Source of the DNA: Escherichia coli | GTDB taxonomy: Bacteria; Pseudomonadota; Gammaproteobacteria; Enterobacterales; Enterobacteriaceae | Assembly: GCF_022846255.1 (NCBI RefSeq) | Contig: NZ_AP025682.1 | Direction: 5' to 3' (one strand) | DNA: 64,000 bases | Shown: positions 23,686 to 24,555 of the stretch, one piece after another | Position numbering within the stretch: position 1 is the stretch's first letter | Layout: the number at the start of each line of letters is the position of its first letter | The notes under the pieces: generated by a model | Databases searched by the model: none | Told to the model about the DNA's origin: nothing | Seen by the model: the letters and a program-made list of their open reading frames with translations, nothing else | Translations under genes and position numbers: made by a program

Positions 23686-24511
23686 ACCTTTTATCTTTTA
23701 TCGCTGTTCAGTATGAGTGATTACCTGTGGATTCCTGAGCACACATAAGGGGTAACCATAAACATTAGCGATGCCATACGTATAACATCCCACATCACTA
23801 TCAAGAAGATTATCTTTACCTCTGATGCTCGCTCAGAAACAGTTACGCTAAATACCTTAAAAAGGTAATCACAAGTCAAAACTCAGGAGATAATCACGCA
23901 AGAATGCAATATTAAAATTCAGATACTCATTATTGGTAATAAAGAAGTAGTTGGACTATTTCGATATTTATAATTTCCCACTACGTATTGACGCCCATTC
24001 ATGAGTAAAGGCGCATTATATGAATTTAACAATCCAGATCAACTGAAAATACCTCAACCTCATAAACACATAGCGTCAACATTCAATGACATAATGAGTA
24101 AAGATGTTGGTTATGCATACACGTCATTACTCTATGCCTATCCCTTAACAACCTGCCTCTTAAGACTGAATCCATTCAGCAATAGATGACCAACATTATA
24201 ACAATGACAATAAAAACAATATTTAAAACAATCAATAAAATATCAGACACAGACAATTAAACCTTAAACAACAAATGGTTACATTGATTTTGGTTGATTT
24301 GCGCTACGCGTTCCCCATGAATAAAGCGTCATTTCAAATTAGCACCAATATTTACATTAATTAAGACTAAGCTTATTGAACATTCACAACAGTCCAAACG
24401 TAGGTTTTGGGCTTCAATAGTTCTTTTCTTTTTTATTATCTGTTGCCTGGCAATCATCAATCTATACTAAGGGCTTAACTGTACAGATATAACGTATCAA
24501 GAGGTAAGAGA

Positions 24512-24541
24512 AACCGCGCCATATGCATACATGGCGCGGTT
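24512..24541. terminator. hairpin immediately downstream of betT (AACCGCGCCAT-loop-ATGGCGCGGTT, followed by TTTT on + strand)
   Basis: 11-bp perfect stem, 8-nt loop, located 15 bp beyond the betT stop. Confidence 0.55.
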
Positions 24542-24555
24542 TTATGCAATAACAA

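Follow-up and report, generated by a model that had tools for sequence, protein, structure and literature searches.

The window, a stretch of 64,000 nt of Escherichia coli DNA (contig NZ_AP025682.1), carries betT and, downstream on the same minus strand, pdeL, with a long AT-rich gap between them. The features of this gap are collected in Table 1.

The betT-pdeL gap and the betT hairpin

The sequence-only reading of this locus placed the pdeL start at a GTG at 23685. The annotated start is instead an ATG at 23679, so that the gap comprises 23680-24555 (876 bp). Its AT-richness, also claimed in that reading, is borne out: GC content is 34.8% in the gap versus 48.7% in the window, 45.6% in pdeL and 55.2% in betT, and in a window-wide comparison only 1.7% of 876-nt windows have a GC content as low. 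The interval is 99.8% identical in the closest genome and 92.7% identical in K-12-type genomes, and at least 80% of it is carried by 3648 of 5426 complete E. coli genomes. A mobile-element origin was considered and rejected; a search of a plasmid collection gave only laboratory K-12 F-prime plasmids and chromosome-sized records. Annotation of the window at this gap should carry a yahV-like small ORF, left out by automatic annotation in this lineage, the betT terminator and the pdeL promoter elements.

Table 1. Features of the betT-pdeL locus in the window.
Feature	Coordinates	Strand	Basis and details
betT	24556..26589	-	677-codon ORF; annotated so in near-identical RefSeq genomes
betT stop codon TGA, upper gap boundary	24556..24558	-	ORF list and annotation of near-identical genomes
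Plausible betT terminator hairpin	24511..24542	-	Sequence and folding; core stem 24514-24522 / 24531-24539, loop 24523-24530
Distal PdeL box (CIB) TTCAATAAGCTTAGTCTTAAT	24360..24380	-	AATAAG-N6-CTTAAT inverted repeat; within K-12 EMSA oligo fragment 4991/4997
yahV-like small ORF	24176..24250	-	24 codons, GTG start, TGA stop; translation and K-12 alignment
Cra box GCTGAATGGATTCAGT	24165..24180	-	K-12 oligo 4695 'CB CDB'; overlaps the yahV stop codon
Cra-dependent PdeL box (CDB), diverged	24151..24164	-	K-12 oligo 4695 and CDB-minus primer 5028
Conserved 34-nt block CATCTTTACTCATTATGTCATTGAATGTTGACGC	24073..24106	-	Phylogenetic footprint, between CDB and core promoter
Longest ORF of the gap, 62 aa	24001..24189	+	
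Best pdeL core promoter candidate	24015..24042	-	-35 TTGATC 24042-24037, 16-nt spacer, -10 TATAAT 24020-24015
Predicted pdeL 5' UTR, ~329 nt	23680..24008	-	From promoter position
pdeL Shine-Dalgarno AAGGTG	23685..23690	-	
pdeL start codon ATG, lower gap boundary	23677..23679	-	RefSeq annotation of near-identical genomes
pdeL	22591..23679	-	362-codon ORF; RefSeq annotation, near-identical genomes

The hairpin begins 13 nt past the betT stop codon. It had been described as a strong betT terminator with a perfect 11-bp stem at 24512-24541; that stem is present and extends to 12 Watson-Crick pairs (8 G:C), with AAACCGCGCCAT (24511-24522) pairing perfectly with ATGGCGCGGTTT (24531-24542) across an 8-nt loop. 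Folded on the betT strand the hairpin reaches -24.1 kcal/mol, against a mean of -12.5 (sd 2.7) for shuffled sequences (z -4.25), with one shuffle in 200 equalling it; the plus strand gives -22.7 and z -4.73. Beyond the 9-bp GC core, the tail of the betT strand is UUUCUCUU and that of the opposite strand UUUUAUGC, and the hairpin looks bidirectional because A/T tracts flank it on both sides. The betT-strand tail has an interrupted run of 6 U in 8 positions, the first three of which can pair with the upstream AAA. No terminator was reported by a pattern scanner anywhere in the window; it passed over the hairpin because the T tract is taken up into the maximal stem. In the O157 copy, where the stem cannot extend, the scanner did call the hairpin, on the strand antisense to betT; in O157-type genomes no U-rich tail follows the hairpin on the betT strand. 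A single mismatch interrupts the stem in K-12, where the folding energy is -17.7. The hairpin is a plausible intrinsic terminator for betT, with the form of a bidirectional one. It resembles E. coli bidirectional gene-end terminators in its 9-pair GC stem with A:U extension, its 8-nt loop, its U-rich tails on both strands and its place 13 nt behind a stop codon; it differs from them in its interrupted betT-strand tail and in that nothing annotated converges from the other side.

Control elements and predicted leader of pdeL

Elements defined in K-12 were mapped onto the window from the oligonucleotides of Table S4 of a study of pdeL control (bioRxiv 10.1101/2021.10.01.462762), together with the K-12 alignment. 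The distal PdeL box is the sole match in 64 kb, where 0.12 would be expected, and carries one mismatch to the K-12-derived pattern; its right half-site reads CTTAAT in the window versus CTTATT in K-12. The Cra box is likewise unique, no other place in the window matching the ideal Cra palindrome; it agrees with K-12 oligo 4695 except for one extra base in the printed oligo, and is invariant in all five aligned lineages, O157 included. Its centre lies ~140 bp upstream of the -35 hexamer, which is far for simple activation. In the immediate surroundings of the Cra box, conservation is lowest at the adjoining CDB, which is not conserved in sister clades. It reads CTTAAGAGGCAGGT in the window versus CTTAATGAGTGGGT in K-12, with 4 of 14 positions differing and the CTTAA core kept. 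Because of these differences, binding of PdeL at this site is uncertain, although its DNA-binding domain is identical to that of K-12 (359 of 362 residues of the whole protein are identical, including all of the HTH region). The 34-nt block between the CDB and the promoter has no site assigned to it in the literature consulted on pdeL control.

The core promoter candidate, with 10 of 12 matches, is the only strong promoter-like site that a scan returned on the pdeL strand. It falls inside the window equivalent (24181-24003) of the K-12 fragment bound by RNA polymerase (oligos 4695-4283), and is conserved in all clades as well as in O157 and E. albertii. The K-12 'P1' mutant primer 5032 leaves both hexamers intact. 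From the position of this promoter, pdeL transcription would be expected to start near 24008, giving a leader of ~329 nt; ~500 bp of the gap would therefore be upstream regulatory DNA. The whole gap had previously been taken for a leader, a description that fits only about a third of it.

This leader could itself be a post-transcriptional control element, by RNA structure, as an sRNA or CsrA target or through Rho-dependent attenuation, and could matter more than control at the promoter. Untranslated leaders bound by H-NS are typically targeted by Rho, conservation reaches ~90% over the final ~120 nt ahead of the pdeL ATG in clades where the distal gap is 56-78% identical, and GGA motifs are found in CUCAGGAAUCC and at the Shine-Dalgarno sequence. 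However, the global structure of the leader is not significant, folding no better than shuffles (z -1.31), and Rfam returned nothing for 23300-24900 at E <= 1. The K-12 literature, moreover, explains pdeL regulation at the promoter (bioRxiv 10.1101/2021.10.01.462762). Leader-based control as the key level is thus considered unlikely.

Matches to the high-affinity H-NS motif TCGATAAATT, allowing up to two mismatches, are not enriched (78 in the window versus 76 expected, 2 in the gap), and the scan is uninformative. The composition of the gap would speak for occupancy and silencing by H-NS.

Conservation of the gap and the small ORF yahV

Against K-12 the gap diverges by 7.3%, about the synonymous rate of its neighbours, in which the codon changes are 20 silent and 3 replacement for pdeL and 33 silent and 1 replacement for betT. 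PdeL orthologues are found only in Escherichia. In two diverged genomes, Escherichia sp. E1V33 and strain SCPM-O-B-8794, identity per 100 nt is 89-99% in pdeL but only 56-87% across the gap. Within the gap of these two genomes, conserved islands are formed by the CIB, which stands between diverged flanks, by the region of the yahV ribosome site (35 nt around the site and the start), by the Cra box, the block at 24073-24106, the core promoter and the proximal leader. Apart from the diverged CDB, the control elements are present in the window and selectively conserved. Faster evolution of regulatory intergenic regions bound by H-NS, relative to unbound ones, has been reported (PMC4720273), and the divergence of the gap fits this report. 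Conservation in the alignments supports function for the sites and not for the bulk of the gap.

The yahV-like ORF encodes (M)SDILLIVLNIVFIVIVIMLVIYC and is preceded, 11 nt upstream, by an AAGG Shine-Dalgarno sequence at 24262-24265. K-12 YahV (VCDILLNVLNIVFIGIAIILVIIC; coordinates 331802-331876; gene order betT > yahV > pdeL) belongs to a set of 36 small ORFs that VanOrsdel et al. (2018, PMC6001520) revealed with chromosomal SPA tags. K-12-type RefSeq records carry a 75-nt CDS, 'protein YahV', in the gap, and an intermediate allele group carries a 'hypothetical protein'. The window ORF shares with K-12 YahV (b4730) its position, strand, length, GTG start, TGA stop and hydrophobic single-helix character. 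Unlike K-12 YahV it is unannotated in the closest RefSeq genome, and 6 of its 24 residues are changed (18 identical). The exact window protein is absent from a collection of 15 billion proteins which does hold the K-12 form. YahV is missing from the Weaver preprint, and the 'YahV' of two toxin-antitoxin papers, a type II toxin of the RelE family whose partner is sohA, is evidently yhaV and unrelated.

Could yahV be the main functional element here, a 24-residue membrane peptide that modulates BetT, the envelope or osmotic stress, or that is type I toxin-like, with the pdeL sites merely sharing its space? Besides the SPA-tag detection and the conserved start region, the ORF is intact in all six distinct E. 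coli alleles sampled, with GTG, TGA and AAGG ribosome site kept; pangenome co-occurrence ties it to osmotic stress and motility (PMC9976479), and the window peptide is almost entirely hydrophobic. Hydrophobic residues are, however, the default coding of T-rich DNA. The six alleles give no sign of codon-level constraint or of evolution as a coding sequence: 9 of 11 variable nucleotides change the amino acid (2 are silent), and second codon positions account for 6 of the 11. The six YahV residues that differ from K-12 contrast with 3 of 362 in PdeL. The ORF is broken in E1V33, where the GTG start reads GTA and a TGA comes early, and in SCPM-O-B-8794, which has lost 1 nt; the adjoining Cra box is invariant in both. 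Pfam and NCBIfam models match neither YahV allele, and Rfam gave no antisense RNA family in the interval; a weak plus-strand promoter-like site (24204-24232, 9 of 12 matches) does lie inside yahV. The locus is not assigned to the type I toxin-antitoxin systems. A leading role for yahV is on these grounds very improbable. It is most likely a young, translated, weakly constrained ORF within regulatory DNA, and probably not the reason the region exists.

The longest ORF of the gap, on the plus strand, was rejected as a gene, as it runs antisense across both the promoter and the Cra box and its ATG is ACG in E1V33. Its conservation can be put down to that antisense position; it is unannotated in every RefSeq record inspected and is without a Pfam or NCBIfam match. 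The earlier statement that the gap holds no credible coding sequence stands for genes of conventional size but technically fails on yahV, although the evolutionary case for yahV as a functional gene is weak and the ORF leaves the role of the region unaltered.

Possible relation to ehaA, and comparison with known silenced loci

Three architectures are found upstream of pdeL. Type A (betT, 876-bp gap, pdeL) has a match in 3807 of 5426 complete E. coli genomes; type B (betT, 573-bp gap, ehaA, 141-bp gap, pdeL) occurs in O157:H7 and others; and type C (ykgEFG, diverged AT-rich gap, pdeL) occurs in E1V33 and SCPM-O-B-8794. pdeL is present in 5162 complete E. coli genomes, 1391 of which carry a 90-95% identical allele. 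Some 30% of complete E. coli genomes are without the gap, and ~95% keep pdeL. In E. whittamii, 139 nt separate pdeL from an autotransporter gene on its upstream side; in E. albertii, remnants of ehaA occupy this place. The homology that the window shares with the loci of O157-type genomes, E. albertii and E. whittamii ends 11-15 nt before the pdeL ATG.

The O157 betT-ehaA gap carries, upstream of ehaA, the same Cra box and a TTGAT(C/T)-16-TATAATGCGC promoter at the same ~140-nt spacing. In a profile search the O157 Cra box and promoter were found at E = 6e-5 and the E. albertii promoter at E = 4e-6. Just downstream of the O157 Cra box is a near-palindromic site resembling a PdeL box, AATAAG-N6-CTTAT.

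On the simplest reading of these sequences, the K-12-type 'pdeL promoter' and the promoter of ehaA are orthologues. That the K-12-type pdeL control region descends from the ehaA promoter is put forward tentatively, with somewhat less than an even chance. If so, a Cra-dependent adhesin promoter would have come to drive a c-di-GMP phosphodiesterase directly once ehaA was lost or replaced, the distal PdeL box and the young yahV ORF would belong to ehaA-less arrangements alone, and ehaA of EHEC would be under the control of Cra and perhaps of PdeL. A literature search for ehaA together with pdeL returned a single Shigella genomics paper, and promoter orthology was not found discussed. A shared Cra-dependent promoter would be of modest evolutionary interest and could guide work on co-regulation of adhesins and c-di-GMP in pathogenic strains.

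An ehaA remnant was also sought in the gap and rejected: tblastn with EhaA and the E. whittamii autotransporter gave nothing below E 0.3, and low-stringency blastn was empty. This result bears on a further possibility, that most of the gap is non-functional AT-rich filler left by ehaA loss or replacement and passively bound by H-NS, with only a short promoter of importance. Such filler would agree with divergence from K-12 at about the synonymous rate, with divergence from sister clades far beyond that of the flanks, with the autotransporter gene or its remnants lying here, only ~140 bp before pdeL, in O157-type E. coli, E. whittamii and E. albertii, and with the IS1 insertions and deletions that natural isolates tolerate in the gap. 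Yet the discrete conserved islands fall on experimentally defined K-12 sites, up to 340 bp upstream of the promoter, the proximal UTR is conserved beyond synonymous sites, and scrambling of the CIB or CDB alters pdeL expression in K-12 (bioRxiv 10.1101/2021.10.01.462762). With no remnant detectable either, the filler explanation is extremely doubtful.

[quoted passage not shown] The same study found that pdeL transcription is cut by deletion of Cra or PdeL or by scrambling of their sites, that RNA polymerase bound the promoter fragment only with Cra and PdeL, and that IHF and Fis sites lie between the PdeL boxes; its authors proposed that c-di-GMP-sensitive PdeL tetramers engage both boxes to give a bistable switch. 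The complex control of pdeL suggested by the sequence-only reading agrees with this work (H-NS silencing, Cra/PdeL activation, bistable autoregulation dependent on c-di-GMP), and the corresponding elements are present in the window, the CDB in diverged form. The interval is thus very probably the pdeL control region already characterised in K-12. The locus has been dissected there, and the original finding holds nothing new to specialists; the H-NS/Fis ChIP and start mapping proposed with it are largely anticipated.

A model for the window, with protein binding and the switch taken from the K-12 literature, would run as follows. The hairpin with its A and T tracts would end betT transcription. 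The ~500 bp of AT-rich upstream DNA, holding in turn the CIB, yahV, the Cra box and the CDB, and followed by a putative sigma-70 promoter and the ~329-nt leader, would be coated by H-NS, silencing pdeL. Cra at its own box would, as in K-12, help PdeL to bind the adjoining site, and at low c-di-GMP PdeL tetramers would bridge both boxes, counter H-NS and recruit RNA polymerase, producing a bistable switch. We infer that the switch works in this strain as it does in K-12, the diverged CDB notwithstanding; it may be tuned differently, because it is the proximal PdeL box that has diverged.

The terminator would presumably stop betT transcription from running on into the silenced DNA that follows. 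In 2018 Rangarajan and Schnetz reportedly found that transcription driven across H-NS-bound DNA relieves silencing, and the terminator would for this reason keep osmotically induced betT transcription from derepressing pdeL. The K-12 paper cites Rangarajan and Schnetz 2018 for H-NS sites (bioRxiv 10.1101/2021.10.01.462762).

The closest known system is the K-12 pdeL (yahA) region itself, H-NS-silenced, Cra/PdeL-activated and bistable (Reinders et al. 2016; bioRxiv 10.1101/2021.10.01.462762), with which the window shares locus, gene order, Cra box, promoter hexamers and spacing, and AT-richness. It differs in a gap that is 92.7% identical, in the 4 of 14 changed CDB positions, and in a terminator stem that is perfect versus one mismatch in K-12. 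More broadly, loci of the bgl, proU, csgD and leuO type are H-NS-silenced and have long AT-rich control regions with specific activators that act as anti-silencers. Like the window gap, the control regions of such loci are AT-rich, well below genome GC, and in natural isolates the gap receives IS1 insertions as bgl does; unlike in those loci, the anti-silencer of pdeL is the regulated gene's own product, which is also a c-di-GMP phosphodiesterase.

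A promoter module apparently shared with ehaA

The autotransporter adhesin gene ehaA sits between betT and pdeL in O157-type genomes (locus L058 among them). Upstream of ehaA in these genomes are a Cra box and a promoter of the form TTGATT-16-TATAAT. Judged by sequence, both are orthologous to the pdeL promoter module of the window, a relation that was not seen discussed in the literature searched. E. albertii likewise has the core promoter; the comparison draws on loci L058, L057, L010 and L009. Between betT and ehaA in O157, a near-palindromic, PdeL-box-like site (ATTAATAAGACGATTCTTATA; L058 3396-3416) lies downstream of the Cra box at a distance of ~40 nt; 0.32 such sites would be expected in 9.1 kb. 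The site hints that PdeL may act at the ehaA promoter as well.

Features of the betT-pdeL gap and of its counterparts in other genomes (coordinates refer to the window unless marked L058)
Feature	Position	Strand	Remark
34-nt block CATCTTTACTCATTATGTCATTGAATGTTGACGC	24073-24106	-	between the proximal PdeL box (CDB) and the core promoter; conserved across diverged clades
62-codon ORF (MSKGALYEFNNPDQ...)	24001-24189	+	antisense to the pdeL promoter and Cra box
IS1, locus L004	24120-24127		Cra and CDB sites cut off from the promoter
IS1A, locus L005	24004-24207 lost		promoter, Cra box and half of yahV gone
IS1X2, locus L006	23764		all upstream DNA through the bet operon lost; entire upstream region replaced
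betT-ehaA gap, O157:H7 WS4202	L058 3193-3765
ehaA, O157:H7 WS4202	L058 3766-7749

Conserved blocks and an antisense frame

The literature consulted on the pdeL control region assigns no binding site to the conserved 34-nt block. Its plus strand includes a sequence similar to an extended -10 element, TGACATAAT. Within the pdeL leader the final ~120 nt (23680-23800, minus strand) are ~90% conserved in clades whose distal gap, the part remote from pdeL, is 56-78% identical; this conservation is higher than expected for neutral DNA. This part of the leader carries a GGA motif (CUCAGGAAUCC), and structure prediction over it gave nothing significant. The antisense 62-codon ORF is also intact in K-12; as a gene it was judged spurious, being unannotated, without a family match, and with its start lost in Escherichia sp. 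E1V33.

Rearrangements and replicons

IS1 insertions within the gap occur in natural isolates, as listed in the table. The bet operon is absent upstream of pdeL in two Escherichia lineages (L007 and L008: E1V33 and strain SCPM-O-B-8794), where ykgEFG (lutABC-like) adjoins a divergent version of the AT-rich DNA, whose start coincides precisely with position 24493 of the window, just past the terminator. Further stretches of the window with GC below 38% in 876-nt windows lie at 30376-32600, 36727-37816 and 59287-61071, the lowest value being 29.3% (start 30795). The gap, including yahV, is also found on 214-242 kb plasmids of laboratory K-12 strains (plasmid records H46-H52), presumably F-prime plasmids bearing this chromosomal segment. 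PLSDB files several chromosome-sized records as plasmids.

Annotation of yahV

The NCBI pipeline calls yahV 'protein YahV' in K-12-like alleles and 'hypothetical protein' in intermediate alleles, and leaves the window-type allele (24176-24250) unannotated. The gene has been reported as lineage-restricted (PMC9976479). Because the pipeline skips the window-type allele, this published restriction may in part be an annotation effect.
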